DNA of 64,000 nt from Oscillospiraceae bacterium. Lineage in GTDB: Bacteria > Bacillota > Clostridia > Oscillospirales > UBA929. This document shows positions 5,706 through 62,663 of the stretch, piece after piece. The stretch lies in contig JAVBPM010000005.1 of assembly GCA_031549605.1 (NCBI GenBank), positions 2,315 to 66,314 on the forward strand. Reading direction: 5' to 3'. The stretch's first letter is position 1. Every line of letters starts with the position of its first letter. Made by a program: the position numbers and the translations under genes. A model generated the notes under the pieces. The model was not told where the DNA came from, searched no databases, and worked only from the letters and a program-made list of their open reading frames with translations.

Positions 5706-5740
5706 CGGGGCGGACGCAACCAACAGTTGCGCCCGCCCCG
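5706..5740 (-). terminator. GC-rich stem-loop between the vWA gene and cwlJ (possible operon terminator/attenuator)
   Basis: CGGGGCGGACGCAACC-AAC-AGTTGCGCCCGCCCCG. The apex is a near copy of the iterated GCAACC-N3-GGTTGC palindrome. The downstream U-tract on the minus strand is weak. Confidence 0.3.
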
Positions 5741-5756
5741 TATCATCTTTTGTGTC

Positions 5757-6917
5757 TCACTCGTCCTGTGTCAACGACTCTTTTTTCAACGCGCGTTCCA
5801 GCAGCTGCGGCAGCCTATTGGGCGTACAGGCAAAACAGGGGATGCCCAACACGGCAATGCGCTTGGCCGAGGCATGATCATAGGCGGGGTGCCCACGGTC
5901 GCTGAGCGCCGTCAGCACAATAACAGTAACACCGCTCTGCTGCAAATCCTCCAGCTGGGCATACAGCTGTGCCTGATTGCCGCCCTCATAGAGGTCAGTC
6001 AACAAGATGAAGACCGTGTCCTGCGGCTGCTCTATCAACTGCCGGCAATAGCCAACGCAGCCGTTGATGTCGGTTCCGCCACCCAGCTGCACGCCATACA
6101 GCATATCAACCGGGTCGTCGCCGCACTGCTCGGTTAAATCAACAACGGCGGTATCAAAGGCGACAACGTGCGTTTTCAGCGCCGCCATCGAGGCCAGCAC
6201 CGCACCGCACACGGCACCGTAGACAACCGATTCGGCCATCGAGCCCGACTGGTCCATGGCCAACACCACCGTCCACTTGCTGCTGCGCCGCGCTCTGTCA
6301 AAAAAGTAGACGCGCTCGGGCACAAGGCGGCGTAGCCCCACATTATAGCTTCTGAGGTTCTTGCCAATCGTAGTTTTCCAGTCGATGCTCGCCGCGTGGG
6401 GTATCGGGCTGTGCGCGCGTCGATTGACAGCGCCGGACACCGCCTGCTTCAGCTGACTCTCCAGCCGCTGATTAATATCGTCGACAACGGCCTGCACCAC
6501 TTGACGCGCCACCGCTTTGGTCTGCTCGGGCACCTTGTCCTTCAGCGCCATCAGCGTTGTCACAATGGCCATGTCCGGCTTGACCGCCGCCAGTGTCTCT
6601 GGCTCCAGCAACAGCTGTTTTAGGCCGCGACGCTCCATGGCATCGGCTTGCAGCACACTGACAACATCGCGTGGAAAGCAGCGGCGCACATCGGCCAACC
6701 ACCGCGCGATATAGGGCGCGCTGGCCTCGCGGCTGGCACTGCGCTGTTCGTCGTCTCCGTAGCGAAAGCCCTGCTGCGTCTCGTCGTAAATGGCGGCCAG
6801 CGCTTGGTCCATCAGGCGCTGCTCGCCGCTCAGCGGCGGTGCGCCCTGTTGGTCAAACCAGTCATCGACCTGCGGCCCCAGCAGCAGGCGCCAACGCGTC
6901 AGGTCAGCACCGCTCAT
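5757..6917 (-). CDS. von Willebrand factor A (vWA) domain protein, YehP-like
   Basis: 386 aa. MIDAS VVLAMDQSGSM ... GGGTD ... LLTDLYEGG. ATGA overlap (6914-6917) with the upstream PRTase gene. Confidence 0.85.
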   Translation of the reverse strand: MSGADLTRWRLLLGPQVDDWFDQQGAPPLSGEQRLMDQALAAIYDETQQGFRYGDDEQRSASREASAPYIARWLADVRRCFPRDVVSVLQADAMERRGLKQLLLEPETLAAVKPDMAIVTTLMALKDKVPEQTKAVARQVVQAVVDDINQRLESQLKQAVSGAVNRRAHSPIPHAASIDWKTTIGKNLRSYNVGLRRLVPERVYFFDRARRSSKWTVVLAMDQSGSMAESVVYGAVCGAVLASMAALKTHVVAFDTAVVDLTEQCGDDPVDMLYGVQLGGGTDINGCVGYCRQLIEQPQDTVFILLTDLYEGGNQAQLYAQLEDLQQSGVTVIVLTALSDRGHPAYDHASAKRIAVLGIPCFACTPNRLPQLLERALKKESLTQDE

Positions 6918-7432
6918 TCTTCAATCAATATGGCGTCGACAAAGTTGTCGTCGACCCAGCTGCGGGTGTGCTCATTCAATGCCATACCAATGGTCGCCAC
7001 GCCGGCAATGGCCACCTCCTCGGCATCGAGCAGCCGCAGTGCCGCGCGCACCTGTGCGCCGCTTTGAATCCACTCGTCGACCAGTACAACGCGGCTACCG
7101 CGCGGAATGCTGCCGCGCACAGCGCACAGCGTTTGTGACTGCCCCGTCGAATCGACGTAGCTGTCGCTAATCAATTCCTCCTCGCGGTAGGGCAGCTTGC
7201 CGCCCTTGCGCAAGGCGATAAACCCGACGTGCAGGCGTGCCGCCATCGCCGCGCCGAGGATCCAGCCCAGCGCCTCAGGAGCGGCCACATAGTCGACCTC
7301 GCCGTAGTAACCGGCGCTCAGCCGGTAGACAATGGCCTCAAAAAGCTGCGGCCGTTGAAACAGCGGCAGCAAGTCGTTGCGCCCAACCGTATTGCCCGGC
7401 AGCAATATCTTAATCTGTTCACGTAGATCCAC
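6914..7432 (-). CDS. type I phosphoribosyltransferase, adenine-PRTase (Apt)-like with a divergent PRPP loop
   Basis: 172 aa. VDYVAAPEALGWILGAAMAARLHVGFIALRKGGKLP aligns with the Apt core. The PRPP motif reads RVVLVDEWIQSGAQ instead of VDDLLATGGT. GTG start preceded by AAGGAGGG right after the upstream stop. Confidence 0.8.
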   Translation of the reverse strand: MDLREQIKILLPGNTVGRNDLLPLFQRPQLFEAIVYRLSAGYYGEVDYVAAPEALGWILGAAMAARLHVGFIALRKGGKLPYREEELISDSYVDSTGQSQTLCAVRGSIPRGSRVVLVDEWIQSGAQVRAALRLLDAEEVAIAGVATIGMALNEHTRSWVDDNFVDAILIEE

Positions 7433-7447
7433 AACAAGCCCTCCTTT

Positions 7448-9688
7448 TCAAAACCCGTCAAAATCAAAAGTCGATACCTCATCCAGCCATTGCCGCTCCT
7501 GCTCGCTCAGCGGCTGGCTGACAGCATCCTCCACTTGGTCGGCGCTCAACGCACGCAACTGTGCCAGCTGCTGACACACCATGCGCTTCTCGGCGGGTGA
7601 GAAGCCGGCCAACGCCCGGCGCAGGATTACCAACACCGGCACAAAGGCGTCCTCCTCAAGTGCCGCCATATAGTCGTCCAGCGCCTGCCACAGTTTGGAC
7701 AGCGACAGCAGCGCATAGTGATTGCGCGAGACCAGCCCTTCAAACCAGCGCGCACTGTCGGCCGGCAATGTGGCGGACGACAGTCGGTGGGTCATCAACG
7801 GCAGCCACCGTGTCTCGTCCATGCCGTCGCGCTCCAACAGCAGCGCCGCCGCCGTGCCCGCCAGCAGGGCATTAACACTCTGCCCGTCAGCCACGGCGTG
7901 CAACGCCTGACGCCACGCCTCGCCGTCACACAACGACGGGTGCTGGACGGCGGCCTCCTGCACCAGCCACAGCGCCTTTTGCACCGCTGCGGCGGCGTTA
8001 TCGTCACAGCCGCAACTGGTGGTTGCGATGCCCGTCGCGCGAACAAATAGCTGCGACAGCAACGGCTCCAGCGCCGTAGTATCGGTGTGTCGCAGTCCGC
8101 CAAACTTCACCGTCATGCTGAGCGTGTGCAGTGCCTCGGCCACTCCCTCAAGGCTGTCCTGTTGACCGGTAAAGTCGCGCAGTGCTTCAGCAGCGGCGCG
8201 CAGCGCGTCCGGCAGGCCGCACGCGGCCGCCGACTCGACAACAGCTGTAATATCGGCGATACATGTAACGCACTGTAATTGCTCGGCCAGCATCTCGCGT
8301 GCCGCCTTGTCAATCGTCTCGCCGCGCAGTGCGTTTTCGGCCAGCGCGATTTCGGTATCCGGCGTCCACTGCAGCGCATAGACTTCTTTCCACGTCGCAC
8401 CTGTCTGCCGCACCTGCTGACGCTTGCCAAAAGGCACCCCAAGCGCGGCCAAACGGTTGAGAAAGAAAAAACGATTGAGGTCAAGCCAGCGGCTCTGCAG
8501 ACGCTTGACCGCCGTGTTTTCGCGCAAGTCAAGCTGCAGTTCCTTGGCCACCGGCGTGCGGTAGCGCTCCAGTGTCAGCTGACGACACTGCCGCAAAAAA
8601 TCCTGCTGTATGGGCGCGCTCAGATGCTGCGTTGGCAGTGAGCCGGCCGCTGTGCCCACCTCGACGCGGTTGAGCGCCTCGGCTATCGGCGCCAGTTGAC
8701 CCTGTCCCAGGCAGGTAACCGCTGCGGCGCGCAAGTTGTCCAGTGTTGGCAACCGTTGGTTGCGTACCGATGCCAGCGCCAGTGAAAGCCGCGTTGCCTC
8801 CAGCACATCGGCGGCGGATACCGACCGACCCTGTTGCCGCAAGGTCTGTGCCAACTCAGCAAAAAACTGCACCGGAAGCGATTGCAGCGTATCGTCCCGC
8901 AGTGCACTCCACAGCAGTTCAAAGTAGCGAGGACTGTGGATGCCGGCTTCGTAGCCGGTTCGTGACGACAGTCGCAGATAGGTATAGGGCAGCGCCGTCA
9001 GCTGCACCGGCAGTCGCGGCAGGGCGTCGAGCTCGCTATCGCTCATCGGCGGCGCGTCTGTCAGCACCGACGCGTGATAAGCGCCACAGACGACCGCTAT
9101 GTCTTGGTCGGCCACGCCGCTGCGCCGCACGGTCTCGATTTTGCGGCGCATGTGGGCCTCGCGAACTAGGTTTTCCGGCGCGACCGGCTGTAAATCGCGC
9201 AGTCCTTGTCCCAGCTCGTACACCGCCTGCCGGTAGGCGGCGTCACTGCTGTTGTGCTCGAAGGCGGCTTCCCAATAGTCATCAAAGGTTTCATAGCCGT
9301 TGGCCGCTGCCAGTTGCCGGTAGAGATGCTGCACCGACCAGGTCGGCTGCTGGTCGTCTGCTGGTTTTCGTGCCGACAGCGCCAGAAAGACGCCGGTGGG
9401 CAAATCGATAAACTTGGCCTCGGCGCCATTCTCGGACGCCCAGCGCAGAGCGGTTAACTCGGGCGAGTAGTCGGCGTAGGGAAGCAGCAGCGATCGGACC
9501 GGCGGCTGGGCGGCGTAGGCCATGACCGCAACCGGCGGTTGCGTCTCCGCGTCAGTCAGCAGCGCAATCAGCTGTGTGACATCGCTGGGGCCTTCAACCA
9601 GAACGGCCTTGGGGCGCTGCCTGTCCAATGCCGCGCGCAGGTGGAGCGAGGCGGCCGGTGAAAAGTGCCGCACACCAAATACCATCAC
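7448..9688 (-). CDS. large uncharacterised protein, YehM/DUF5682-like
   Basis: 746-aa ORF. Size and position (between a MoxR-type AAA and a vWA gene) match YehM of the E. coli yehLMPQ cluster. The family name is recalled, not searched. Confidence 0.6.
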   Translation of the reverse strand: MMVFGVRHFSPAASLHLRAALDRQRPKAVLVEGPSDVTQLIALLTDAETQPPVAVMAYAAQPPVRSLLLPYADYSPELTALRWASENGAEAKFIDLPTGVFLALSARKPADDQQPTWSVQHLYRQLAAANGYETFDDYWEAAFEHNSSDAAYRQAVYELGQGLRDLQPVAPENLVREAHMRRKIETVRRSGVADQDIAVVCGAYHASVLTDAPPMSDSELDALPRLPVQLTALPYTYLRLSSRTGYEAGIHSPRYFELLWSALRDDTLQSLPVQFFAELAQTLRQQGRSVSAADVLEATRLSLALASVRNQRLPTLDNLRAAAVTCLGQGQLAPIAEALNRVEVGTAAGSLPTQHLSAPIQQDFLRQCRQLTLERYRTPVAKELQLDLRENTAVKRLQSRWLDLNRFFFLNRLAALGVPFGKRQQVRQTGATWKEVYALQWTPDTEIALAENALRGETIDKAAREMLAEQLQCVTCIADITAVVESAAACGLPDALRAAAEALRDFTGQQDSLEGVAEALHTLSMTVKFGGLRHTDTTALEPLLSQLFVRATGIATTSCGCDDNAAAAVQKALWLVQEAAVQHPSLCDGEAWRQALHAVADGQSVNALLAGTAAALLLERDGMDETRWLPLMTHRLSSATLPADSARWFEGLVSRNHYALLSLSKLWQALDDYMAALEEDAFVPVLVILRRALAGFSPAEKRMVCQQLAQLRALSADQVEDAVSQPLSEQERQWLDEVSTFDFDGF

Positions 9689-9699
9689 GGCTCTGCTTC

Positions 9700-10794
9700 T
9701 CAGCGTTCGGCGGCAGGCAGCAGCGCGGTGAGCGATTGGTATAAGCCCTGCCAGCCGGCGCGTTTTTTGACCACAGTGCTAAGATACTCGCGTAGCACGG
9801 CGGCGTCCTTTTGCTCATCCTTAACCACGGCACTCAACAGGCCGGGCGCGAGGTCGTTGTCGGTGATGCTGCCGCTGCCAAAGCAGCAGGACAGCGACAT
9901 GGCGCCCACCAGCAGACTGATAGCGTCGGCGGTCGACAGCACGCCGGACGGGCACTTTACGCGTTCACGGCCGTCCTCGGTCACGCCGGAGCGCAGCTCG
10001 CGGAACACGGACACGACCTTAGCGACGACCTCGTCACCCGGCTGCGCGCCACCTAGGTTCAGCGTATCGGACAGCTGCGCCACGCGGGTGGAAACAATAC
10101 GTTTTTCGTCCTCGGCGGTGGCCGGCGGTGGTAGCACCACCATGTTAAAGCGCCGTTTGAGCGCTGATGACATGGCGTTGACGCCGCGGTCGCGTGTGTT
10201 GGCGGTAGCGATGAGATTGAAGCCGCGAGCCGCTTTGACATCGGTGGCCAGTTCGGGTATGGCGATACTCTTTTCGCTCAGCAGGCTAATCAGCGCGTCC
10301 TGCACCTCGCCGGCGCAGCGGGAGATTTCTTCAAAACGGGCGATGGCACCGCGCTCCATGGCCTGATAAACCGGTGTCTTGACCAGCGCATCGGGCGTTG
10401 GGCCGTTGGCGATTAACAATGCGTAGTTCCAACCGTAACGAATTTGCTCTTCGGTGGTGCCCAGTGTGCCTTGCACCACCAATGTTGAGTCGCCGGATAT
10501 GGCAGCGGCCAGATGCTCGCTCAGCCACGACTTGGCCGTGCCCGGTTCGCCGATTAGCAGCAGGCCGCGGTCGGCCAGCAGCGAAGCGATGGCGATTTCA
10601 ACGGTGCGGCGGTCACCAATATACTTAGCGCTGATGTCCACGCCCTTGGCCTGTCCGCCCACAATATAGGTCAGCACGGCCTGCGGCGACAGCTGCCAGC
10701 CGTCGGGACGTGTGGCGGTATCGGCGGCGGCCAGCGCCTCGAGTTCGCGGCGATACAGCCATTCGGCCGGCTGACGCAGTACATTTTGGTTCAT
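9700..10794 (-). CDS. MoxR/AAA_5-type AAA+ ATPase, YehL-like
   Basis: Walker A LLLIGEPGTAKS, Walker B-like AIARFEEISR, sensor ATANTRD. Start set at ATG 10794 (GGGGTGG RBS); the ORF-track start at 10812 is a TTG. Confidence 0.85.
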   Translation of the reverse strand: MNQNVLRQPAEWLYRRELEALAAADTATRPDGWQLSPQAVLTYIVGGQAKGVDISAKYIGDRRTVEIAIASLLADRGLLLIGEPGTAKSWLSEHLAAAISGDSTLVVQGTLGTTEEQIRYGWNYALLIANGPTPDALVKTPVYQAMERGAIARFEEISRCAGEVQDALISLLSEKSIAIPELATDVKAARGFNLIATANTRDRGVNAMSSALKRRFNMVVLPPPATAEDEKRIVSTRVAQLSDTLNLGGAQPGDEVVAKVVSVFRELRSGVTEDGRERVKCPSGVLSTADAISLLVGAMSLSCCFGSGSITDNDLAPGLLSAVVKDEQKDAAVLREYLSTVVKKRAGWQGLYQSLTALLPAAER

Positions 10795-10808
10795 GTTGAC
10801 CACCCCAT

Positions 10809-11723
10809 TCAAAAATCCAGCAATGCGTTGTCCAAAAAGGGATACTGGCGCATAAAGCGCGGCAACTTAAGCGCTTGAATACAGGCGTCAAACAGTGCAA
10901 CATCGGCTGCGTGTCGTTCGGCAACCGTTGGTTGCGCCTTCTGCAACGCTTTTAACGCCGCTTTGTCACCCATCTGTACTAAGGCTTTCAGCGCCGCAAC
11001 GCGAACAACCTTATGGTTGTCAAGCAGTAGCGCCTCGAGGGTCGGACGCGCGTCCGGCTCCTTGCGCAAGCGATAGACCGCCTCAGACCGTAGCTCGCTG
11101 CAGCCGCGCTGCAGCACACGCTCAGTAAAACCACGATCCTTTTGGGCCGCCAACAGCCGAAAGGTGAGGCAGTTGCCTCGACGGCTGCTGGTCAACGTAA
11201 ACCGCGACTCAAGCGCGCTGACGGCGTCTTCGCCGATGCCCCGCAACGTCAGCGCGGCGAGTGTGGACACTTCGCTTGACTGACTGTGAAGTGCCATACA
11301 GAGCGAGGGCAACAGGCGCAGGTCGAACAGCTGGTTGCTGTCGAAGGCCCGCTGCAGCAGCTCGGCACGACCGGGTGCCGCTGTTGTCAATGCGGCGTGG
11401 AGGGCTGTCAGGTGGCTGTACGGCAATGTCGTGGTCAGCGCGCTACCTGCTGTACGCGGCGCTTTCGGCGTGGCAACCTGAGGTTGCTTACACTGCGCCA
11501 CCAGCAGCGCCTGTGTCAACGACAACGCGGCCAGCGGCGAGTCGCGCCCCTCGGAACACGCCAATACAAGTTGTTCGAGTCTTTGCAGTGCAGGTGTTTG
11601 GCTTGCCGCAACCTTTAGTTGCGCCGCCAGGCGCACCAACTGGGCATCGTCTTTTGCGGCGGCAGGGCCGGCAATGAGCAGCCGGCGCAGCTGCGTATGC
11701 AGCGCTGTTAACGTATCAGTCAT
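10809..11723 (-). CDS. all-alpha, HEAT/ARM-like repeat protein
   Basis: 304 aa, Ala/Leu-rich helical. The C-terminal DNHKVVRVAALKALVQMGDKAALKALQKA resembles HEAT_2/PBS-lyase repeats. Confidence 0.55.
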   Translation of the reverse strand: MTDTLTALHTQLRRLLIAGPAAAKDDAQLVRLAAQLKVAASQTPALQRLEQLVLACSEGRDSPLAALSLTQALLVAQCKQPQVATPKAPRTAGSALTTTLPYSHLTALHAALTTAAPGRAELLQRAFDSNQLFDLRLLPSLCMALHSQSSEVSTLAALTLRGIGEDAVSALESRFTLTSSRRGNCLTFRLLAAQKDRGFTERVLQRGCSELRSEAVYRLRKEPDARPTLEALLLDNHKVVRVAALKALVQMGDKAALKALQKAQPTVAERHAADVALFDACIQALKLPRFMRQYPFLDNALLDF

Positions 11724-11735
11724 CAGGCACCTCGC

Positions 11736-13160
11736 TTAGGCCAGGCGCAACAGGCCCTGCGGCCCGAGCAGCGACAACGGAGCCACCTGCAGGCTGCCGT
11801 CGCGGTAGGCAAAGCGGCCCAGAAGCGCCGAATACTGTGACAGGCGGCGACCCAGCAGCGATAGCACCGGCAGGGTGTCGGCCCAGCCACCGGAAACGGC
11901 GTTGGCCAGCTGAAACCACACAGTGCCGCAGCGCACGAAGTGGCCGCTCTTATCGGCAGAAAACTCGTCGCAGGAAAGCAACACATAGGGATGCCGACTA
12001 CAAAGCGGATTGATGAGCTGCTGCTTGACCTGACGGCAAATGTGCTCGCCGTCGGTCTGTCGGCATTGGCACGCGGCCTGCCAGTCGGCATCGTCCGGCG
12101 GTGTCATGGACGGCAACTCGTTCCAACGGATGCGACGGTTTTGGCCGGCCGTTGGATAGTGATAACACTGACGCACGGTCAGCATGCGGTCGCAGGAGTC
12201 TTCCTGTGGTACGTGCTGCACGGCGCGGTAAGGACGATAATTGACGCTTAGGTCAACGCGCGACTCCTCAAGGTTCAGCCACACGCCGAGGTCCTGATAG
12301 TGCAGTTCGGCCTCGTTGTCGTAGCAGGTGAAGGCCAGCTGCAGCAGGTGGGCTGTCGACGTATTTCCGATGGCCGCCAAGTCGCTCAGCTGCCACGCTG
12401 TGCCCAGTACGGCCTCGATTTCCGACGTAGTGTCGCGCGGCGCTTCAGGGTTGGCCAATCGGTCTTGCAGATAGCTGCGTCCACGCTGCACGAGGGCATG
12501 CACGCGCGCTGCGTCTTGACATACGATGGTATACATGGCCTCGGTGTCGGTCATGGCGAAGGTGTCCAACAGTTGTAGCAGAAGACCCTGCACGCCGGTC
12601 AGGTGGCAGTCGGCCAGCTGTTTGGTTTGGTTTTTCAGCGCCAGCAGCGTTTTTCCATTGACGGCTGCCAAGCCATTGGCGGTCAAAGCCTGCAGAACGG
12701 TTTCAGCCAGCGCTAACCCTTGCAGCTGTTGCTCAACCCGGCTGTTGCTGCGCGCGGTGCCGGCTGTTGTTGCTGCCGATGCCGCCGGCTTGGACTCGGC
12801 ACGTCGCGCCGCTTTTTCGCGCTTGTCAACCAACGGTTGCGGCAAGGCGGCGGTTGTAAACTTTCGGTTGCGCGCTTTGGCCAGCGTCAGCGCCAATGCA
12901 TGCTTGCACGGACGTTTGCGACTGGGGCAGCTGCAGCTGAAAGCGGGACTGGACTCGTCGGTAAAGTCGGCCGACACGGTGTAGCTGCTTTTGCCACTGC
13001 CGAGGCACTCACCAAAAAGGATGTGACCGTCGGGACTGCTATTCAGTTGCACCAGCTGGCCGGCTTGTTCTATCGCGTCGGCGTTGCGGAAGGAGGCCGG
13101 ATCGGGCGCTAAGGCCTTGACTACAGCTTCAGAAACGTGCACTTTGACCTCTCCCTCCAA
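11736..13160 (-). CDS. SWIM zinc-finger protein, YehQ-like
   Basis: CxCx7CxH SWIM signature FSCSCPSRKRPCKHALAL. The ORF-track start is a TTG. GTG at 13145 behind GGAGGGAGAGG is the likelier start. Confidence 0.8.
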   Translation of the reverse strand: MEGEVKVHVSEAVVKALAPDPASFRNADAIEQAGQLVQLNSSPDGHILFGECLGSGKSSYTVSADFTDESSPAFSCSCPSRKRPCKHALALTLAKARNRKFTTAALPQPLVDKREKAARRAESKPAASAATTAGTARSNSRVEQQLQGLALAETVLQALTANGLAAVNGKTLLALKNQTKQLADCHLTGVQGLLLQLLDTFAMTDTEAMYTIVCQDAARVHALVQRGRSYLQDRLANPEAPRDTTSEIEAVLGTAWQLSDLAAIGNTSTAHLLQLAFTCYDNEAELHYQDLGVWLNLEESRVDLSVNYRPYRAVQHVPQEDSCDRMLTVRQCYHYPTAGQNRRIRWNELPSMTPPDDADWQAACQCRQTDGEHICRQVKQQLINPLCSRHPYVLLSCDEFSADKSGHFVRCGTVWFQLANAVSGGWADTLPVLSLLGRRLSQYSALLGRFAYRDGSLQVAPLSLLGPQGLLRLA

Positions 13161-13320
13161 CCTTCTCTCTCTTCATCATACACCACCCATTAGGGCCTGT
13201 CAAACGACGCTACACCCTTTTTTTCGACATTTTTGGCACCGCTTGCGTTATGTCAACATAGACTGTAGTGGGTGCTGTCGGCAACGCCATCAGAACAACA
13301 TATATAAGGAGACATTGACT

Positions 13321-14394
13321 ATGGATTTGAAAAACTTTTATGAAAAGCTCGAGTTCGAGCCGACGGGAAAACCTCACAAGGAGGACCGCTGCTGCGGGTA
13401 TGACGGCTGTCACAAAAAGTGCGTCTGCATTTGCGAGGGCCCTAAAGGTGACCGTGGACCCTGCGGCCCCAAGGGTGAGACGGGCGATAAGGGCGAGCGC
13501 GGCCACAGGGGCGAGTGCGGCATGCCGGGTTGCCAGGGCGAGTGTGGACCTAAGGGCGAAAAAGGCGACAGGGGATGTCAAGGCGAGCGCGGCCCTAAGG
13601 GTGAGAAAGGCGAGCAGGGCAGCCGCGGTGAGTGCGGGCCCAAGGGTGAAAAAGGCGAGCAGGGTTGCCACGGCGAGCGCGGTCCTAAGGGTGAAAAAGG
13701 CGAGCAGGGCTGCCGCGGTGAGCGCGGTCCCAAGGGTGAAAAAGGCGAGCAGGGCTGCCACGGCGAGCGCGGGCCCAAGGGTGAAAAAGGCGAACAGGGC
13801 TGCCAGGGCGAACGTGGGCCTAAGGGTGAAAAAGGCGACTGTGGCGCTTGCGGCAGCGGCGAGCTGCTGGAAAACCCCGGCTTTGAGCACTGTCATTACG
13901 ACATTCCCTGCGGGTGGAAGCCCTGCTGCCAAGCCTGTGCCGATGATGCTGTGACAATGGCAACGGCGGACGGTCAGGCCGTTGAACCGGGCGAGGCTTT
14001 CCGACCCCACGCCGAGCGCAACATTGAGTGCGTCAACTGCGAGGGTACGGTTCACAGCGGCTGCCAAGCGGTGCGGCTAGAGGACAACGCCTGTTTATAT
14101 CAGACGGTCTACCGCGTTGAGAAAGACCGCTGCTATGCCTTCTCTTTCTTTGCCAAGGGCCAGGACGCCAAACTGACGGCTGAGGTGCTGTTTGAATCCA
14201 AGTGTAAGGATGAAACGGGCGCTTGCATCGTGGTGCGCGCCGGCGATTTGTGCTGTGACTGCTACGGCTATTACCGCGTCGTAACGTCCAAGGTGCCGTA
14301 CGACGTCGACTGCGTCACCGTGCGCTTTACCGTCGACGGCTGCGACTGCCGCGGCTATGTGCTGCTCGACGACGTTTCACTGACCGGCTGCTAA
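13321..14394 (+). CDS. Cys-rich collagen-like (Gly-X-Y) protein with a C-terminal jelly-roll/CBM-like domain; probable spore-surface or exosporium protein
   Basis: ATG 13321 behind AAGGAGA. About 47 uninterrupted GXY triplets (13438-13860). I count 37 Cys in 357 aa. The C-terminal domain is bracketed by ELLENPGFE ... VLLDDVSL. Confidence 0.85.
   Translation: MDLKNFYEKLEFEPTGKPHKEDRCCGYDGCHKKCVCICEGPKGDRGPCGPKGETGDKGERGHRGECGMPGCQGECGPKGEKGDRGCQGERGPKGEKGEQGSRGECGPKGEKGEQGCHGERGPKGEKGEQGCRGERGPKGEKGEQGCHGERGPKGEKGEQGCQGERGPKGEKGDCGACGSGELLENPGFEHCHYDIPCGWKPCCQACADDAVTMATADGQAVEPGEAFRPHAERNIECVNCEGTVHSGCQAVRLEDNACLYQTVYRVEKDRCYAFSFFAKGQDAKLTAEVLFESKCKDETGACIVVRAGDLCCDCYGYYRVVTSKVPYDVDCVTVRFTVDGCDCRGYVLLDDVSLTGC
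13582..13851 (+). repeat. six tandem 45-bp in-frame repeats encoding GE(R/C)GPKGEKGEQG(C/S)x
   Basis: Consecutive units GERGPKGEKGEQGSR / GECGPKGEKGEQGCH / GERGPKGEKGEQGCR / ...GCH / ...GCQ / GERGPKGEKGDCGAC, read directly from the sequence. Confidence 0.9.
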
Positions 14395-18771: not shown

Positions 18772-20130
18772 ATGACGCGTTCTACAAAACTGCTCGGTCT
18801 ACTACTGGCAGTCGTGCTGCTGGCTTCACTGCTGCCCTCGGCGTTGGCCGCTTCCAAGCCGGTGCCCGTCGTTTACATTAATAGTGCTGCGATTGCTGTG
18901 GCACGTGACACTATACCGGTGGTGCAGGACAAGGCCGCCTATGGTTCGGCGGCGTTGCTGTCGTCGTTGGGCACGTTGCATTGCAATAGTAAGGAAAGTG
19001 ACAACATGCTGTCGCTGACCGACGCTGTCGGCAATTGGATGGTGTTTGCGCTGGACGACGGCTATGTCTACACCACCGATAACCGCAACCTGTCTAAGTG
19101 CAAGCTGGTTAAGCAGGAGGGCACCTACTACCTGCCGCTGGCTGAAATCTGTAAATTCTTTGGTTACTATTACGAACTGTATACCGGCTCGTTTGGCGCG
19201 GCGGTGCTGATTGACACCACCACTACGGAACCAGCGTCGACCGAATTGGCGGCACTCAAGCAGCGCGCAGTAGCCGAGGTGCCTGTGTTGGTACGCGCGT
19301 ATCAGGACGGAGCGACCGCTCCCAGCGCCAATCCGACAGCGCCGCCTTCGGGCACGCCGACGACATCGCGTGTGACGCTGCCGCCGGTGATTCCTTCGGC
19401 CGGCAGCTACACCAGCCGACCCACGCCCACAGCAAGCCAGCCCACCGACGGCAGTGGAACGACCGAAGTCTCGCCGACGCCCAAGCCCATGACCACCAAG
19501 GTTATTTATCTGACCATTGACGACGGCCCCAGCCAGTATACCCATGCCATTCTGGACGTGCTGGACCAGCACGGCGCGAAAGCCACCTTCTTTATGCAGG
19601 GCTGCTATTATGAGGACGGCGACGACGCCCTGCGCCGCATTGTCGGCAGCGGGCACGCCTACGGGCTGCACAGCTATACGCACTCCGAGAGCAAGTTTTA
19701 CGCCTCGCCCGAGGCTATGATCGGTGAACTGAACCAGTGCAACGACTTGATGCGCGCCATCGCCGTTACGCGCTCGCGCTTGGTGCGAACGCCCTATGGC
19801 TCCGATCCCTATTTTTCACCCGGGGCTAAGAAACACCGCCCGGGCCAGCGCGAGGCGATGAACAACGCCGGCTTCCGCTATTGGGACTGGGATATCGACT
19901 CCAACGACTGGCGCTTCAAAAAGGATCAGGGCGCTGAGGTGGGGCAGGGCATTATTAACCAGCTGAAGAACCACGATTTTTCTTCGCCGGCAATCGTGCT
20001 TTTCCATGAAAAATCGTTTACCGCCGGCTTTTTGCCTGCCGTGTTGGCATACGGCAAAAGCATTGGCGCCGAGTTCCGCGCCATTACCGATGTTGACTCG
20101 CCCTATAACTACCAGCGCGATCGAACGTAA
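18772..20130 (+). CDS. secreted polysaccharide deacetylase (NodB domain) with an N-terminal stalk domain and a Pro/Thr linker
   Basis: Signal peptide MTRSTKLLGLLLAVVLLASLLPSALA. NodB motifs YLTIDDGP ... ATFF ... HSYTH. ATG 18772 behind AAAGGAG. Confidence 0.85.
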   Translation: MTRSTKLLGLLLAVVLLASLLPSALAASKPVPVVYINSAAIAVARDTIPVVQDKAAYGSAALLSSLGTLHCNSKESDNMLSLTDAVGNWMVFALDDGYVYTTDNRNLSKCKLVKQEGTYYLPLAEICKFFGYYYELYTGSFGAAVLIDTTTTEPASTELAALKQRAVAEVPVLVRAYQDGATAPSANPTAPPSGTPTTSRVTLPPVIPSAGSYTSRPTPTASQPTDGSGTTEVSPTPKPMTTKVIYLTIDDGPSQYTHAILDVLDQHGAKATFFMQGCYYEDGDDALRRIVGSGHAYGLHSYTHSESKFYASPEAMIGELNQCNDLMRAIAVTRSRLVRTPYGSDPYFSPGAKKHRPGQREAMNNAGFRYWDWDIDSNDWRFKKDQGAEVGQGIINQLKNHDFSSPAIVLFHEKSFTAGFLPAVLAYGKSIGAEFRAITDVDSPYNYQRDRT

Positions 20131-20138
20131 AAAAGGGG

Positions 20139-20167
20139 TTGCATCTTTTGCGCCGGTGTGCTACAAT
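20139..20167 (+). promoter_or_regulatory. sigma-70-type promoter of the tRNA-His locus
   Basis: TTGCAT, 17-nt spacer, TACAAT, about 30 nt upstream of the tRNA. Confidence 0.55.
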
Positions 20168-20196
20168 ACACTGCGCGCGGGCAAGAGTACCTATGT

Positions 20197-20274
20197 GGTG
20201 GGTGTGGCTTAGCTGGTTAAAGCACCAGATTGTGGTTCTGGGGATCGCCGGTTCGAATCCGGTCACCCACCCCA
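20197..20274 (+). tRNA. tRNA-His (GTG)
   Basis: Extra 5' G(-1), acceptor GTGGGTG/CACCCAC, anticodon loop TTGTGGT, T-loop GGTTCGAATCC, encoded CCA. Confidence 0.9.
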
Positions 20275-20312
20275 ACTTTTCTTGCGTTCAGGACGTCGAC
20301 ACGCCGAAAGGA

Positions 20313-20390: not shown

Positions 20391-20401
20391 AGAGCAAATC
20401 A

Positions 20402-46943: not shown

Positions 46944-46992
46944 CTCCCTTGTCTTTATAATAAGGAAACGAGGGGCGCATCCTGTCTTTGGC

Positions 46993-48039: not shown

Positions 48040-48085
48040 ATGACCACTGCCTTTACCGGAATGTCAACCGTTGGTTGCGCCTTGC

Positions 48086-52271: not shown

Positions 52272-53960
52272 ATGAAATTTTCCGAGATCCCCTATCAGCG
52301 CCTGACCGTTGAGCAGGTCGCGCCTCAGGTCGAGCAACTCATTGCCGCACTAGATGCCGCAACCAACGGTTGCGAGGCCTGCGAGGTCTACGAGCGCTAT
52401 AATGCGCTGGTTGTGCAGGTTGAGTCGACGGTGGCGCTGGTGTACATCCGCAACCACCTCGACACCACTGACGCGCTGTACGCCGCCGAGCAGGACTATT
52501 ATGACGAGCAGATTCCACGCCTGACCGAGCTGCTGCACGGCTTTGCCACCAAGCTGATGCTAACGCCGCACCTCAAGGCGTTGGAGGACAAGTACGGCGA
52601 GCAGGCCTTCCGCCGGACGGCCATTGAGCTGCGCACCTTCTCGCCCGCTATTCTGGAGGATATGCAAGAGGAGAACCGGCTGGAGACGCAGTACACCAAG
52701 CTGCTGGCCAGCGCTCAGATTGACTTTGACGGCGGCGTTTACACACTGGCACAACTGGCCGCCTTCCACGTCCACGCCGACCGCGACGTGCGCAAGCGCT
52801 CGATGGAGACAAAGGCGGCGTGGTTTGAGAGCCACAAGGCGGAATTTGACGAGCTGTATGACAAGCTGGTGGCGCTGCGCACGCAGATGGGCCGCAAAAT
52901 GGGCTATGACAACTATCTGCCGCTGGGCTACGACCGCCGTGCCCGCGACTGCTACGGCCCCGCCGAGGTTGCCAAGTTCCGTGCCGCTGTGGTGGAGCAC
53001 ATTGTACCGGTGGCGCACCGTCTCAAGCGCGAGCAGGCGGCGCGTATTGGCGCTGACGCGCTGACGTTGTTCGACGACGGTTTTCTGTACAAGAGCGGCA
53101 ACGCCGCACCCATTGGCACGCCGGAGGAGATTTTTGCCAACGGCAAGAAGATGTACCACGAGCTGAGCGACGAAACCGGCCGCTTTATCGACGATATGCT
53201 GGATATGGACGCCTTTGACGTGCTGGCGCGTCAAAACAAGGCGGGCGGCGGCTTCTGCTATTCCATGTCGGCCTACAACCTGCCCTTTATCTTCGCCAAT
53301 TTCAACGGCACGTCCGACGACATTGAAACGCTGACACACGAGGCGGGTCACGCCTTTGCCGCCTGGGAGGCTTACAAATACCCAGCCGAGGCGCAGCGCA
53401 ACCCCACCTATGACGCCGCCGAGACACACTCGATGTCGATGGAGTTTTTGACCTGGCCGTGGATGGAGCTGTTCTACGGCGGTCAGACCGACAAGTTTAA
53501 GCAGTCGCATCTGGCGGGTGCGTTGACCTTCCTGCCGTATGGCGTCATGGTCGACCATTTTCAGCACATCGTGTATGAAAATCCGTCGCTGTCGCCGCAG
53601 CAGCGTTGCGACGAATGGAAGAAGCTGGAGGCCATTTACCGCCCGTGGCTTGACTACGATATGCCCTTCTACGGCGAGGGACGCCGCTGGATGGGGCAGG
53701 GTCACATCTACACCGACCCGCTTTACTACATTGACTACTGCTTTGCACAGGCCAATGCGCTGAGCGTGTGGGCGCTGGCGCAGCAGGATGCCGCCGACGC
53801 CTGGCGACGCTACTACGGCTTTGTCTCGCTGGCCGGCACCAAGAACTTTGTCGACCTCAACCACGCGGCGGGCCTGGGCGACCCCTTCAGCGCCGAGACG
53901 CTCAAGCGTGTGGCCACTGAGGCACTGGCGTGGCTGGACGAACAGCCCAAACTCGATTAA
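52272..53960 (+). CDS. pepF: M3B family oligoendopeptidase F
   Basis: 562 aa. Zinc motif HEAGHAF. Confidence 0.85.
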   Translation: MKFSEIPYQRLTVEQVAPQVEQLIAALDAATNGCEACEVYERYNALVVQVESTVALVYIRNHLDTTDALYAAEQDYYDEQIPRLTELLHGFATKLMLTPHLKALEDKYGEQAFRRTAIELRTFSPAILEDMQEENRLETQYTKLLASAQIDFDGGVYTLAQLAAFHVHADRDVRKRSMETKAAWFESHKAEFDELYDKLVALRTQMGRKMGYDNYLPLGYDRRARDCYGPAEVAKFRAAVVEHIVPVAHRLKREQAARIGADALTLFDDGFLYKSGNAAPIGTPEEIFANGKKMYHELSDETGRFIDDMLDMDAFDVLARQNKAGGGFCYSMSAYNLPFIFANFNGTSDDIETLTHEAGHAFAAWEAYKYPAEAQRNPTYDAAETHSMSMEFLTWPWMELFYGGQTDKFKQSHLAGALTFLPYGVMVDHFQHIVYENPSLSPQQRCDEWKKLEAIYRPWLDYDMPFYGEGRRWMGQGHIYTDPLYYIDYCFAQANALSVWALAQQDAADAWRRYYGFVSLAGTKNFVDLNHAAGLGDPFSAETLKRVATEALAWLDEQPKLD

Positions 53961-54931: not shown

Positions 54932-55921
54932 ATGCCCTATTCGGCAGAACTGGTCAATACGGCGCTGGCGCAGCTGCGCGCGCGTCGACATCGTGATGAG
55001 GCGGCGTTGATTGAGCGGCGTACGCGGCTCTATGAGCATCTGCCCGACTTACAGCGGCTGGACGCACAGCTGGTCACGACGGTGTCGCGGCTGTTGACGC
55101 TGCCGCGTGACGAGACCGAGCAGGAGTGGGCGCTGGCCGAGCTGCGCGCCGAGAACCTGCGTTTGCAGGCGGAACGAGCCGCCTTGCTGGAGGACAACGG
55201 CTATGACGCCGATGTGTTGGATTTGCCCATCTACTGCACCAACTGCAACGACAGCGGTTACGCCGACGGCGCAACCTGTGGTTGCGTTGAGGCGCTATGT
55301 GCCGCCGAACAGCGCAAGCGGCTGAGCCATATGCTCGACCTGCGCGGTCAGACCTTTGACTCGTTTGACCTATCCTATTACAGCACGCAGGTCGACCAAG
55401 CCATGGGTGACAGTCCGCGTGCGCTGGCCGAAATCAGCCTGCGCTATTGCCGGCGTTACGCCGCCGAGTTTTCGCTTGACAGTCCCAGCTTACTGCTGCT
55501 GGGCAAGCCGGGTTTGGGCAAGACTTTTTTATCGGCCGCCATCGCCGGCGTCGTGGCGGGAAATGGCTTTTCGGTCGTCTACGACAGCATTGGCGCCATC
55601 ATTACCACGATGGAGGCCGAAAAGTTTGAGCGCCGCGACGGCACGCAGGGCAGCGAGCGCTATCTAAACTGCGACCTGCTTATTCTCGACGATTTGGGCA
55701 CGGAAATGGCCACACCCTTTGCCCAATCGGCATTGTACACGCTTGTCAACCAACGGTTGACAAGCAGCCGACCCACCATTATCAGCACCAATTTGACGAT
55801 GGACGAGCTGGGCAAACGCTATAACCCCGCTCTGCTCAGCCGTTTGCGCGGCGTTTATGAGACGCTTTTTTTCCTCGGCGAGGACATTCGCCAGCAGAAA
55901 AGGCGCTTCACCCAGCCTTAA
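54932..55921 (+). CDS. DnaI/DnaC-like AAA+ helicase loader
   Basis: Zinc-binding CTNCNDSGY...CGC, Walker A GKPGLGKTF, Walker B LLILDDLG. Directly downstream of the DnaD-like gene. Confidence 0.8.
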   Translation: MPYSAELVNTALAQLRARRHRDEAALIERRTRLYEHLPDLQRLDAQLVTTVSRLLTLPRDETEQEWALAELRAENLRLQAERAALLEDNGYDADVLDLPIYCTNCNDSGYADGATCGCVEALCAAEQRKRLSHMLDLRGQTFDSFDLSYYSTQVDQAMGDSPRALAEISLRYCRRYAAEFSLDSPSLLLLGKPGLGKTFLSAAIAGVVAGNGFSVVYDSIGAIITTMEAEKFERRDGTQGSERYLNCDLLILDDLGTEMATPFAQSALYTLVNQRLTSSRPTIISTNLTMDELGKRYNPALLSRLRGVYETLFFLGEDIRQQKRRFTQP

Positions 55922-59398: not shown

Positions 59399-59661
59399 CT
59401 TGACTTGGCACGCTGCAGACTGACAAAGACGTGCGCAGGCAAAGAAACGCTGTCCGTCGGCGTAGGATGGTACGCTAGGACAGCGTTTTTGCAGCAAGTA
59501 AAACCATTGCGGCGCAACGACCTTGTCGATGCGCCGCAAATCATTACCCGGGTATCAATACGCAGCCTCACGCCGCCGTGTCCTCTCTTTCCTGATACTG
59601 GTTTTACGGTGCGCGCTTTTTTGACAGTCTGCAAAGGACGCAGGGCAAGCCTGCGTCCTTT
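59397..59661 (-). mobile_element. MITE-like non-coding element, copy 3 (core 59397-59631, inverted) plus one adjoining terminator hairpin (59633-59661)
   Basis: The reverse complement starts with the same 33 nt as copies 1 and 2 and shares the conserved about 150-nt hairpin region. It lacks the TTTTTTGAC end and the second hairpin copy. Its truncated end abuts the htrA stop codon. Confidence 0.65.
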
Positions 59662-60413: not shown

Positions 60414-61847
60414 CTATATGGGTGCGCCCACGATGTGGACGCGCTGCATGTTGGTGGCCGGGCCTCCTTGTGCGTGCAGTGGCAGGCCGGCGGTCAGCAC
60501 TACGAGGTCGCCATCCTTAACGTAGCCGGCGTCTTGTGCCGCTTTGACGGCGTTGGCCATCAACTGCTCGCTGGTGTCCACAATGGTGGTCATCACGGGC
60601 CGCACGCCCCAGAACAGCGCCATCTGGTGGTAGGTTTTCTCCACCGGCGTACAACCGATAATCATGCAGTCGGGGCGGTGCTTGGCGATATGCTGCGCTG
60701 TTTCGCCGCTCTTGGTGATGGTGATAATGGCCTTGGCGTTAAGGTCGGTGGCCGTGGTGCAGGTAGAGTGGCTGATGGCGTTGGCAATCATGGTGTTCTG
60801 GTCGGTGACGATGTTGCGCGTGTGCTTGACCGGTACATAGCCGGCCTCGGTGCACTTGGCAATGCGCACCATCGTCTGCACCGTTTCAACCGGGTACAGG
60901 CCGCTGGCCGTCTCGCCCGACAACATAATGGCGCTGGTGTTGTCGTAAATGGCATTGGCGACGTCGGTCACCTCGGCGCGGGTCGGGCGGGGGTTTTGCG
61001 TCATCGAGTCCAGCATCTGGGTGGCGGTAATGACCGGCTTACCCCAGTAGAGCCCCTTGCGAATCAGCTTCTTTTGGATGATGGGCAGCTCTTCGAGCGC
61101 GACCTCGACGCCCATGTCCCCGCGCGCGACCATGATGCCGTCAGCGGCATCAAAAATGTCGTCAACCTCGGCGATGCCCTCGGCGTTTTCAATCTTGGCA
61201 ATAATGCGCAGCCTGTCGCCGCCCATGTCGTGCAGCGCCTCGCGCAGCGCCCTAATATCGGCGGCGTTGCGCGTGAACGAAGCGGCGACGTAGTCGAAGT
61301 CGTTGTCGACGGCAAATTGCAGGTCTTTCTTGTCCTGTTGGGACAGGAAGGGCATGTGCAGCTTGACGTTGGGCACGTTAATGCCCTTGCGCGAGTTGAT
61401 TTTGCCGCTGTTCATGACCATTGTATAGATGTTTTGCGAGTCGGTGCGCTCGACAGTCAGCGCAATCAGCCCGTCGTCGAGCAGTATTTGGTCGCCGGCT
61501 TTGACGTCCCGCGGCAGCTCGTCGTAACTGATACCGATGCGCTCGGCGGTGCCCTCACACTCCTGCGTCGTCAGCGTCAGCGTCTGACCTTTTTGCAGCA
61601 TGATGGGGCCATCTTTGACAAGGCCGGTGCGGATTTCAGGGCCGCGTGTATCGGCCAGCAGTGCCAAGGGCATGTTAAGCTCGGCACGCAACTTTTTGGC
61701 CATCAGCACACGCTTGAGCTGTTCGTCGTGGTCGCCGTGGGAAAAGTTGAAGCGCACAACGTTGGCGCCGGCCAACAGCAGCTCGCGCATGGTCTTTTCT
61801 TCACCGCTGGCGGGGCCGAGGGTGGCTACAATTTTTGTTTTACGCAT
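60414..61847 (-). CDS. pyk: pyruvate kinase
   Basis: MRKTKIVATLGPAS ... NFSHG ... MVARGDMGVE. Confidence 0.95.
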   Translation of the reverse strand: MRKTKIVATLGPASGEEKTMRELLLAGANVVRFNFSHGDHDEQLKRVLMAKKLRAELNMPLALLADTRGPEIRTGLVKDGPIMLQKGQTLTLTTQECEGTAERIGISYDELPRDVKAGDQILLDDGLIALTVERTDSQNIYTMVMNSGKINSRKGINVPNVKLHMPFLSQQDKKDLQFAVDNDFDYVAASFTRNAADIRALREALHDMGGDRLRIIAKIENAEGIAEVDDIFDAADGIMVARGDMGVEVALEELPIIQKKLIRKGLYWGKPVITATQMLDSMTQNPRPTRAEVTDVANAIYDNTSAIMLSGETASGLYPVETVQTMVRIAKCTEAGYVPVKHTRNIVTDQNTMIANAISHSTCTTATDLNAKAIITITKSGETAQHIAKHRPDCMIIGCTPVEKTYHQMALFWGVRPVMTTIVDTSEQLMANAVKAAQDAGYVKDGDLVVLTAGLPLHAQGGPATNMQRVHIVGAPI

Positions 61848-61990
61848 GGGTCAACATCACCATTCTTTTTATAGTGTTTCCAGTATATCAAAATTGAGCC
61901 GGTGCGACAAGATTGTTTTACCACTTTTCGTAGGCTTTCCCACGTATGCCGCCGATACGCAATAGGCAGACTAGCAGCGAGGTGATTATT

Positions 61991-62605
61991 ATGAAACGCT
62001 GGATTATACACTGCTGTGCGGTCGCTTTTGCGTTGACAGCACTGCTTTTGCCGGTGCAAGCGCAGCCGGGCTCGTGCACGGTGCGCAACGGTGACACACT
62101 CGATTCGATTGCCAAGCGCTATCAAATTAATATTAACGAGCTGCGCAAGGCCAACCCGCAGTGTGGCAAGGGCACCGCGCTCAAGCCGGGCCAGAAGGTC
62201 AGTATTCCCAACACCGACAAGCTGGCCGGTCTCGAGGAGGAAGTGGCGCGCCTGGTCAATCAAGAGCGCGCCAAGCGCAAGCTGCCGGCGCTGGCCTACA
62301 ACGCCGAGCTGTGTCGGCTGGCGCGCATGAAATCGCAGGACTTTATCAACAAGGGCTATTTTGCCCACCAGTCGCCGACTTACGGCAGTCCCTTTGATAT
62401 GCTCAAGCGCAACGGCATCAAGTACACGTCGGCGGGCGAGAACATCGCCAAGGGTCAGCCGACGGCGCAGTCTGTGATGGCCGGCTGGATGGCGTCGACG
62501 GGTCACCGCGGCAACATCCTGTCGTCCGCCTTTACCAAGATTGGCGTCGGTGCGGCTAAGGACTCTAAAGGAAATTTGTACTGGACACAGCTGTTTATCC
62601 GCTAA
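61991..62605 (+). CDS. secreted LysM + CAP/SCP (YkwD-like) domain protein
   Basis: Signal peptide, LysM (CTVRNGDTLDSIAKRYQININELRKANP), CAP domain ending GHRGNILS...IGVG. Confidence 0.85.
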   Translation: MKRWIIHCCAVAFALTALLLPVQAQPGSCTVRNGDTLDSIAKRYQININELRKANPQCGKGTALKPGQKVSIPNTDKLAGLEEEVARLVNQERAKRKLPALAYNAELCRLARMKSQDFINKGYFAHQSPTYGSPFDMLKRNGIKYTSAGENIAKGQPTAQSVMAGWMASTGHRGNILSSAFTKIGVGAAKDSKGNLYWTQLFIR

Positions 62606-62625
62606 TTCCTACTCTTTTCTATGCA

Positions 62626-62663
62626 AAAAGCAATGCCGCAACCAATGGTTGCGGCATTGCGCT
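62626..62663 (-). terminator. terminator hairpin downstream of the minD-like gene (possibly bidirectional)
   Basis: GCAATGCCGCAACCAATGGTTGCGGCATTGC. On the minus strand it is followed by CTTTTTGC. The apex is a copy of the iterated palindrome. Confidence 0.6.

Follow-up and report, generated by a model that had tools for sequence, protein, structure and literature searches.

A hyper-abundant spaced palindrome in an isolated lineage of spore-forming Clostridia: a candidate driven genomic word

Hyper-abundant genomic words are known from few clades only: the uptake signal sequences (USS) of Pasteurellaceae, the DNA uptake sequences (DUS) of Neisseriaceae and highly iterated palindrome 1 (HIP1) of cyanobacteria. 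A molecular-drive model explains the features of USS and DUS, and what HIP1 does has been under debate for about thirty years. We know of no hyper-abundant intragenic palindrome in Firmicutes. Here we analyze a spaced palindrome, GCAACC-N3-GGTTGC, that recurs through a 64-kb stretch of DNA from an Oscillospiraceae bacterium (assembly GCA_031549605.1, contig JAVBPM010000005.1, positions 2,315 to 66,314; hereafter the window). The window is ordinary chromosome of an uncultured, gut-type and spore-forming, Oscillospiraceae-like member of the Clostridia, with a guanine plus cytosine (GC) content of 59%. An original prediction, made by eye from the letters of this stretch, had likened the motif to HIP1, DUS and USS and knew of no described word with its sequence. 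The likeness is borne out by the comparisons below, and a literature string search for the motif sequence returned no match in the library searched.

An over-represented dyad, its origin and its range

The extreme over-representation of the motif in the window is confirmed as real. There are 12 exact copies against 0.03 expected from dinucleotide-preserving shuffles, and 18 copies with at most one mismatch against 0.46 expected; none of 100 shuffles matched the observed counts. The 13-mer CAACCGTTGGTTG or its reverse complement occurs at eight sites, as originally predicted, against 0.00 expected. In addition, the top-ranked 10- to 12-mers in an unbiased k-mer screen of the window are words of the motif. 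Exact copies outnumber one-off copies by about 2:1, and matches with two mismatches are at chance level (three found, with about two estimated from uniform base frequencies). The copies span 57 kb at a density of about one per 3.5-3.6 kb over the 64 kb. They are clustered rather than Poisson-distributed, and per base they are 3.3-fold denser in non-coding DNA, which makes up 8.3% of the window and holds five of the 18 copies (p = 0.014).

The unit that is over-represented is the whole dyad. Spacing between the arms is strict, with 12 copies at N3 and none at any other spacing from N0 to N15, and a scan of the same range for the two hexamers in inverted or direct arrangement found none in the window. 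Single hexamers are not enriched in the window beyond the motif's own share. The shorter bipartite word CAAC-N5-GTTG occurs 20 times against 2.5 expected; all of these sites are full or near-full motifs, so that the window holds no excess of the bare word.

The flanks of the copies are mutually unrelated, with nothing in common beyond 17 bp. The copies are therefore not the local duplications that the original prediction had named as a possible source of the pattern. Nor are they an assembly artefact, since the copies at 55271, 55746 and 62638 recur in independent Logan contigs (run SRR23967709) that match the window at 99.6-100% identity. These contigs extend the sequence examined from the source genome by about 2.4 kb beyond the 64 kb, and they contain one extra exact copy about 174 bp past the window end, read T-Q-P-L-V-A.

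The full consensus is c-GCAACC-RNY-GGTTGC-g, a dyad of 15-17 bp that carries about 24 bits by our summation. With both orientations pooled, C adjoins the outer end of the arm in 63% of half-sites, and a purine opens the spacer in 33 of 38. The spacer follows R-N-Y in 15 of 19 copies (p ~1e-6). When the two-mismatch copy at 37306 is added, 14 of the resulting 16 R-N-Y copies are G-N-T/A-N-C, and about half of all copies have GTT or AAC. Only two arm positions deviate, 1/15 (G>T) and 6/10 (C>T), the latter in four one-off copies and one two-off copy; positions 2-5 and 11-14 are invariant. No compensatory, covarying arm changes were found among the window copies. The AAC spacer lies on the sense strand in seven of ten copies, which is not a significant orientation bias. 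A polar word such as Chi, the FtsK-orienting polar sequences (KOPS) or the SpoIIIE recognition sequences (SRS) was considered and rejected, as the arms are palindromic and the asymmetric GTT/AAC spacer has no significant orientation bias.

Because the arms never covary and the spacer keeps its R-N-Y symmetry, we infer that the motif is read on duplex DNA by a symmetric dimer, probably a homodimeric sequence-specific protein, and not as an RNA fold. Further indications come from other bacteria. At least about ten high-GC (62-71%) metagenome contigs, several of them from soil, carry pairs or triplets of tGCAACC-N3-GGTTGCa at distances of 32-45 bp (L166, L174, L184, L197, L198, L210, L243, L249, L258 and L261 among the metagenome matches listed). 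These paired sites lie in the promoters of operons that combine an ArsR-family (HTH_20/HTH_5) gene with an AHSA1/SRPBCC gene, often together with DUF899, and apparently represent an uncharacterized autoregulatory operator of ArsR-family regulators. The occurrence of the same 15-mer in pairs beside such regulator genes is a genomic association, and it hints at the existence of winged-helix dimers that would recognize precisely this word. A dimeric DNA-binding protein was among the original proposals; the strict N3 spacing, the R-N-Y spacer, the c/g flanks and the ArsR-associated 15-mer all lend it support.

The copies were written by point substitutions, in genes and spacers alike, that override codon usage and even the choice of amino acid. 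Thirteen of the 18 copies lie in coding sequences. All three reading frames are used, and the resulting peptides are A-T-x-G-C, N-Q-R-L or Q-P-x-V-A. When the DnaC-like, DUF5682 and M3 proteins are aligned with their homologues, none of six motif sites has an indel, which rules out an origin by insertion or from a mini-element. In some cases, the motif overlays hypervariable residues, such as NQRL in the DUF5682 protein and ATNGC in the M3 protein. Elsewhere it re-uses compatible conserved residues (PPVA, C-x-C, N-x-R-L) and alters a neighboring residue. Odd residues are also imposed, for example NGC where relatives carry SAA or TAE.

A codon-opportunity test locates the force behind these substitutions. 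Nine peptides of the window's genes could be encoded with the exact motif, and it is present in all nine, where codon usage predicts 0.08 in total, although the motif requires the rare codons CAA, GTT, GCA and TTG. The force therefore acts on DNA, and peptide selection is ruled out by this test together with the use of three frames. The original prediction had proposed selection on DNA or RNA rather than on a peptide. Its rejection of the peptide holds, and its RNA option is weakened by arms that are invariant around a variable loop.

The motif is a recent and lineage-specific acquisition as judged from its absence elsewhere, and it coincides with a rise in GC. The lineage is very isolated: among 5.8 billion proteins, the best homologues of its DUF5682, DnaC-like and M3 peptidase proteins are 47%, 57% and 62% identical. 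As a negative control, 80 Clostridia loci (1.4 Mb) were fetched around the V-ATPase A subunit, of which only the V-ATPase operon is syntenic with the window. They contain no exact copy of the motif, no locus with more than one near copy and no other hyper-abundant palindrome. The sole other repeated palindrome with 6-bp arms in these loci is TGTAAT-N2-ATTACA, present four times in a 21.7-kb locus (L067) of a Halanaerobiales metagenome-assembled genome. Closer relatives, about 30 kb in total, were found through homologues of the DnaC-like and M3 proteins. In 21.7 kb of the closest syntenic relative, not one copy was found with up to two mismatches, and two further relatives (8.4 kb) have a sole two-mismatch match, at the site orthologous to 55746. 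At the density of the window, the chance of finding no true copy in these sequences is about 2e-4. The closest syntenic relatives have 44-50% GC and come from Joint Genome Institute samples that we take to be higher-termite gut metagenomes. No sister genome with the motif was found, the Logan contigs being from the same organism as the window. This count in relatives had been proposed as a check in the original prediction.

In IMG/VR the 15-mer occurs 55 times, always singly, which is about chance level by our estimate, and no phage is enriched. A metagenome scan for the 15-mer yielded no relatives of the window among the matches listed (at least 120 stretches).

Explanations for the motif

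Our best explanation, which we hold tentatively, assigns the motif to the USS/DUS/HIP1 class: a DNA word of a single lineage that biased uptake, recombination or repair would have spread, by point substitutions wherever coding constraints permit. We place it in this class on the basis of its enrichment, its strict dyad, its origin by substitution, its override of codons and residues, its preference for non-coding DNA, the approximate 2:1 ratio of exact to one-off copies, and its absence from relatives and from a low-GC island within the window. In the proposed mechanism, a homodimeric sequence-specific protein would read the dyad on duplex DNA and act in a process that transmits DNA unequally, be it uptake of self-DNA, initiation or resolution of homologous recombination, or mismatch correction. 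Motif-bearing alleles would as a result replace motif-less alleles (molecular drive). Mutation would counteract this gain, chiefly through C>T changes at the innermost position of an arm and G>T changes at the outermost one, and some intergenic copies would have been secondarily extended into terminator hairpins. A reading based on unequal transmission is coherent, since recent work links HIP1 to transformation efficiency (10.1101/2024.09.10.611283).

In a bolder form of this explanation, possible in our view but doubtful, the motif would be a DNA signal for self-recognition, the first in a Gram-positive spore former. The 17-bp dyad would be recognized by a homodimeric receptor or recombination factor that favors uptake or recombination of DNA from its own lineage, and the signal would have spread by molecular drive. 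If this is true, biology of the USS/DUS/HIP1 type would extend to Firmicutes, with a new symmetric mode of recognition.

Several points weigh against a driven word. To our knowledge, sequence-specific DNA uptake has never been described in Firmicutes. USS and DUS are non-palindromic and family-wide, whereas the window motif is palindromic and missing from the nearest relatives found. Searches of the window with Pfam, NCBIfam and PADLOC found no methyltransferase, Vsr-like, ParB, ArsR, competence, repair or defence gene. Any genome-wide status of the motif is an extrapolation from 64 kb plus 2.4 kb. Its spread is also uneven, since one operon has seven copies within 4.8 kb and the stretch at 37.2-48.0 kb has none, which could fit a regional organizer. 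For HIP1, conservation analyses favored selection for a role in chromosome structure over neutral drive (PMC5861425).

Among the alternatives, the one that survives best, while still unlikely, is a chromosome-organizing site. An abundant dimer, nucleoid-associated or centromere-like, would bind it, and selection would maintain it for chromosome folding, segregation or polar anchoring in sporulation. Its function would resemble that of ParB/parS, Noc and the Noc-binding sites (NBS), MatP/matS or RacA/ram, and it might be confined to an origin-proximal domain. The layout of matS is GTGAC-RNY-GTCAC, which the 6-RNY-6 dyad mirrors. The host is spore-forming, with SpoIIP and a SleB-like hydrolase, and the clustering of the copies is in line with such a site. 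The window may be origin-proximal, as the M3-murA-spoIIP neighborhood of the closest syntenic relative (L263) lies about 8 kb from ParB-domain genes and two parS-like palindromes; there, at 331-2994, two ParB-domain genes flank a ParA-type gene in the layout expected for noc-soj-spo0J. A role in nucleoid structure has also been argued for HIP1 (PMC5861425).

The density of the motif counts against such a function. One copy per 3.5 kb is 10-20 times the density of parS, NBS, matS and ram. Sites selected for binding are usually degenerate, whereas 12 of the 18 copies are perfect over 12 positions, and a change of protein sequence is a high price for a redundant architectural site. Furthermore, the window has a ParA-like gene but no ParB-like gene; a search of the window for parS gave nothing above chance, and no cognate gene of the ParB, MatP or RacA type was found in it.

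A second alternative, to which we give a low probability, is a footprint of methylation-linked repair, after the model of Elhai for HIP1. A methyltransferase, Type I-like or orphan and equipped with a symmetric specificity subunit, would recognize CAAC-N5-GTTG, and methylation-dependent or very-short-patch-like mismatch correction would convert near-matches to the full motif. Bipartite 4-N5-4 words with adenines in both halves are typical of Type I targets, and half-size HsdS dimers give palindromic ones; CAAC-N5-GTTG is compatible with a target of this kind. The recurrent C>T change at one position would fit deamination of a methylated cytosine. All deviations in the window fall outside CAAC and GTTG, at positions 1/15 and 6/10. 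They parallel HIP1, whose one-nucleotide deviations are reported to fall outside the methyltransferase core (PMC4390886). However, no methyltransferase or Vsr-like gene lies in the window, restriction-linked targets are normally avoided rather than enriched, bare CAAC-N5-GTTG is not in excess, and a methyltransferase core alone does not explain 24 bits.

It is very unlikely that the motif works as a hairpin in RNA or single-stranded DNA, with a 6-bp stem and a 3-nt loop, whether as a terminator seed, an mRNA stability element or the target of a hairpin-binding enzyme. The 15-mer alone does fold at -5 to -6.5 kcal/mol. Two of the five intergenic copies cap long terminator-like hairpins, one of them a canonical terminator, and by our reading a G-U pair is retained in the transcripts of three of the four C6>T variants. 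Nevertheless, 13 of 18 copies are intragenic without terminator context, and three of the five intergenic copies have no extended hairpin. The stems are strictly identical without covariation while the loop varies, which is the opposite of a structure-selected RNA, and R-N-Y symmetry is meaningless in a hairpin loop though natural for a two-fold symmetric protein on duplex DNA. An Rfam scan of the window returned only the three tRNAs, with nothing at the motif or at a 250-nt repeat described below. Given that the remaining intergenic and all intragenic copies lack such a context, and that stems are identical around a varying loop, the two terminator cases are read as a secondary use of the motif.

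More improbable still is an operator role, with the copies serving an ordinary transcription factor such as a regulator of the ArsR family. The identical 15-mer does occur in pairs in the ArsR-AHSA1(-DUF899) promoters described above. In the window, by contrast, 13 of 18 copies lie within genes, each on its own and at an arbitrary position; there are no pairs at 32-45 bp, no ArsR-like gene was detected, and the density is far above that of any regulon. Finally, nothing beyond the small sample size favors chance, local duplication, a mobile mini-insertion of the miniature inverted-repeat transposable element (MITE) or repetitive extragenic palindromic (REP) type, or an assembly artefact, and these are ruled out for practical purposes by shuffles that never reach the counts, unrelated flanks, alignments free of protein indels, the mostly intragenic location and the agreement of the Logan contigs.

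With these alternatives weighed, a driven word of the USS/DUS/HIP1 class remains our preferred reading. The motif is an independent example from another phylum, with a long spaced dyad and a sharp lineage restriction, and it offers a comparative handle on how such motifs originate. As the sister lineages are without the motif, the responsible gene should be a lineage-specific gain. The costs to proteins (rare codons and odd residues such as Gly-Cys) quantify the strength of the DNA-level force. In practical terms, the word is a specific metagenome marker for this uncultured lineage, and efficient genetic manipulation may depend on it, in the way that cyanobacterial transformation depends on HIP1.

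Individual copies and neighboring features

The original prediction was right in all 16 coordinates that it gave. It missed three copies: the exact one at 27658-27672 and the one-mismatch copies at 8012-8026 and 37182-37196. Of its eight 13-mer sites, those at 12826 and 48064 deviate from the motif at position 1 and the one at 55746 at both outer bases. It had also placed the intergenic copies at 28061, 48064 and 62638 in spacers or hairpin apices. This is correct for 62638; the other two are at no apex, and the second apex copy is at 5716.

The highest motif density, seven copies in 4.8 kb, is found in an operon at 5757-13160 on the minus strand, which encodes VWA/CoxE-like, phosphoribosyltransferase-like, DUF5682, MoxR-type AAA ATPase and HEAT-repeat proteins and a 474-aa protein of unknown function. 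The operon has a patchy distribution, with homologues 38-47% identical in Planctomycetota, Paenibacillus and Prevotellaceae, and no PADLOC match. Its DUF5682 gene contains GCAACTGGTGGTTGC at 8012-8026 (one mismatch, C6>T; read ATTSC), an exact copy with spacer GTT at 8749-8763 (NQRL, in a hypervariable stretch) and an exact copy with spacer GGC at 9528-9542 (QPPVA, where PPVA is conserved and Q is new). The HEAT-repeat gene contains exact copies at 10921-10935 (GTT, QPTVA) and 11473-11487 (TGA, QPQVA), as well as GCAACCTTTAGTTGC at 11608-11622 (one mismatch, G10>A). The gene for the 474-aa protein carries TCAACCAACGGTTGC at 12826-12840, which has one mismatch (T for G at position 1) and is read QPLV. 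Beside the operon, 27 nt past the stop of the VWA/CoxE-like gene, the intergenic copy GCAACCAACAGTTGC at 5716-5730 (one mismatch, G10>A) forms the apex of a hairpin at 5705-5741 with a 17-bp stem.

Further exact copies lie within the maf gene (27658-27672, spacer GCT, ATSGC) and in the intergenic region 44 nt upstream of its start (28061-28075, spacer GTT), the latter with no extended hairpin centered on the motif. Two more have spacer AGC: 30794-30808 in a 472-aa gene (NQRL) and 32952-32966 in spoIIP (QPAVA). The exact copy at 34605-34619 (GTT) adjoins the stop codon of a phosphoglucomutase-family gene and is 45 nt from a copy of the 250-nt repeat. A metallo-beta-lactamase-fold gene contains GCAACCTGCAGTTGC at 37182-37196 (one mismatch, G10>A). 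At the 5' end of the V-ATPase cluster, TCAACCGTTGGTTGC at 48064-48078 (one mismatch, T for G at position 1) is intergenic, 25 nt before the next start codon and without hairpin extension.

Towards the right end of the window, the M3 oligoendopeptidase gene carries an exact copy at 52359-52373 (AAC), read ATNGC where relatives have AVSAA or AKTAE. The DnaC/DnaI-like gene carries an exact copy at 55271-55285 (TGT), read ATCGC over an invariant C-x-C. Doubtful, in contrast, is TCAACCAACGGTTGA at 55746-55760 in the same gene, over a conserved V-N-x-R-L-T; its 13-mer core is exact and both outer bases differ (TCAACC...GGTTGA). It is the weakest member of the set, because the conserved peptide already gives the arms at the orthologous site of a relative (L138), which has TCAACCATCGGTTGA. 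The last exact copy, at 62638-62652 (AAT), is the apex of a hairpin at 62630-62660 whose 14-bp stem precedes a TTTTT run on the minus strand. This hairpin is the intrinsic terminator of the ParA-like gene, 14 nt past it, and the best terminator-like site of its region.

Some features of the window bear on the settings discussed above. Besides the V-type ATPase operon, its genes include pbp2, maf, spoIIP, murA, a SleB-like hydrolase, a dnaD/dnaI-like pair, a two-component system and three tRNAs. The ParA/MipZ-like ATPase gene (62666-63463, minus strand) is an orphan, with an acyltransferase gene upstream and neither ParB nor parS within the 64 kb. The low-GC island at 20100-24000 (52% against 59%) holds tRNA-His, tRNA-Gln and tRNA-Lys, a 737-aa leucine-rich-repeat surface protein and a 210-aa protein of unknown function. 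It is possibly foreign DNA, and no motif copies occur in it (20-24 kb). The V-type ATPase operon (39350-48039, minus strand), the only syntenic part of the 80 fetched loci, has no internal motif copy. Its A and B subunits share 76-81% identity with their counterparts in other Oscillospiraceae, against at most 47-62% with any homologue for housekeeping genes of the window, which may reflect either very strong conservation or a more recent transfer.

Other observations concern neighboring elements. An intergenic repeat of about 250 nt is present in three copies that are 80-94% identical, at 4477-4718, at 34320-34560 (plus strand) and, inverted, at 59416-59631. It is rich in internal hairpins and has no Rfam match. 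At least two copies are flanked on both sides by a copy-specific, duplicated terminator-like hairpin, an arrangement that points to a MITE-like element which either duplicates terminator hairpins or uses them as insertion sites. A collagen-like (G-X-Y) gene at 13318-14394 (plus strand) contains a 45-bp tandem repeat at 13527-13839 (6.9 copies, 85% matches) and encodes a Cys-rich C-terminal domain; its product looks like a BclA-type exosporium protein. The minus-strand open reading frame at 13210-14067 that overlaps it is probably spurious. One Logan contig (L262) has six single-base differences from positions 1-1485 of the window in 1.5 kb (99.6% identity), while two others are 100% identical, which points to strain-level variation in sample SRR23967709.

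Comparison with known systems

The motif belongs to no named family, as it fails defining features of USS/DUS, HIP1 and REP/MITE elements. Its arms and spacing, GCAACC-N3-GGTTGC, are identical to those of the apparent ArsR-AHSA1 operators. These sites differ in being paired, promoter-bound and present once or twice per operon, with t/a as flanking base, whereas the window copies are single, mostly intragenic and hyper-abundant, with c/g flanks. The sites matS (MatP), parS (ParB), NBS (Noc) and ram (RacA) are likewise dyads, of 13-16 bp, bound by dimers and often intragenic, although for the window motif binding is only predicted; matS also shares its arm-RNY-arm layout. Such sites number tens per genome and are confined to one macrodomain, and the window motif is 10-20 times denser.

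REP elements and bacterial interspersed mosaic elements (BIME), MITEs and Rickettsia palindromic elements are, like the motif, short palindromic repeats dispersed in a genome. They spread by insertion or transposition, are extragenic or inserted in frame, and have common flanks. An element of the REP/MITE type is rejected, as the window copies are mostly intragenic, free of indels and unrelated in their flanks.

Resemblance to USS and DUS is closer. The density, one per 3.6 kb over the window against about one per kb for USS and DUS, is of a similar order, and the copies arose by substitution at weakly constrained positions in coding as well as non-coding DNA, with enrichment in the latter. 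USS and DUS share with the window motif an enrichment in terminator hairpins, an exact to one-off ratio of about 2:1 and absence from apparently foreign DNA. They differ in being asymmetric 9- to 12-mers read by a monomeric receptor, in forming terminators only as inverted pairs and in being shared family-wide. The window motif has dyad symmetry of its own and occurs in a Gram-positive spore former, a group for which we know of no uptake specificity, and its single copies cap two terminator-like hairpins. Assignment to USS/DUS proper is therefore rejected, the word being neither asymmetric, nor paired in terminators, nor shared across a family as judged from 30 kb of the nearest relatives found and 1.4 Mb of other Clostridia loci. 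The occurrence of USS and DUS in terminators is described in PMC1852404.

HIP1 (GCGATCGC) and the alternate HIPs differ from the motif in structure, density and range. HIP1 is a contiguous 8-mer of 16 bits, whereas the window motif is a bipartite dyad of 15-17 bp with a 3-bp spacer and about 24 bits. HIP1 reaches up to one copy per gene or more, against about one per 3.5 kb here, and it is a cyanobacterial, phylum-level word, against one deep lineage of Clostridia. Unlike HIP1, the motif has no GATC-type methyltransferase site embedded in it. HIP1 proper is rejected, as the word is neither GCGATCGC nor a contiguous GC-rich 8-mer and the host belongs to Clostridia, not cyanobacteria. The two systems are otherwise alike: both are perfect palindromes, hugely over-represented (15- to 300-fold or more for HIP-type words, and 12 copies against 0.03 expected in the window), that lie in all gene frames and in spacers (here with 13 of 18 copies in coding sequences, in three frames). 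Spread by substitution and one-base deviations concentrated outside an invariant core are also common to both (PMC5861425, PMC4390886).

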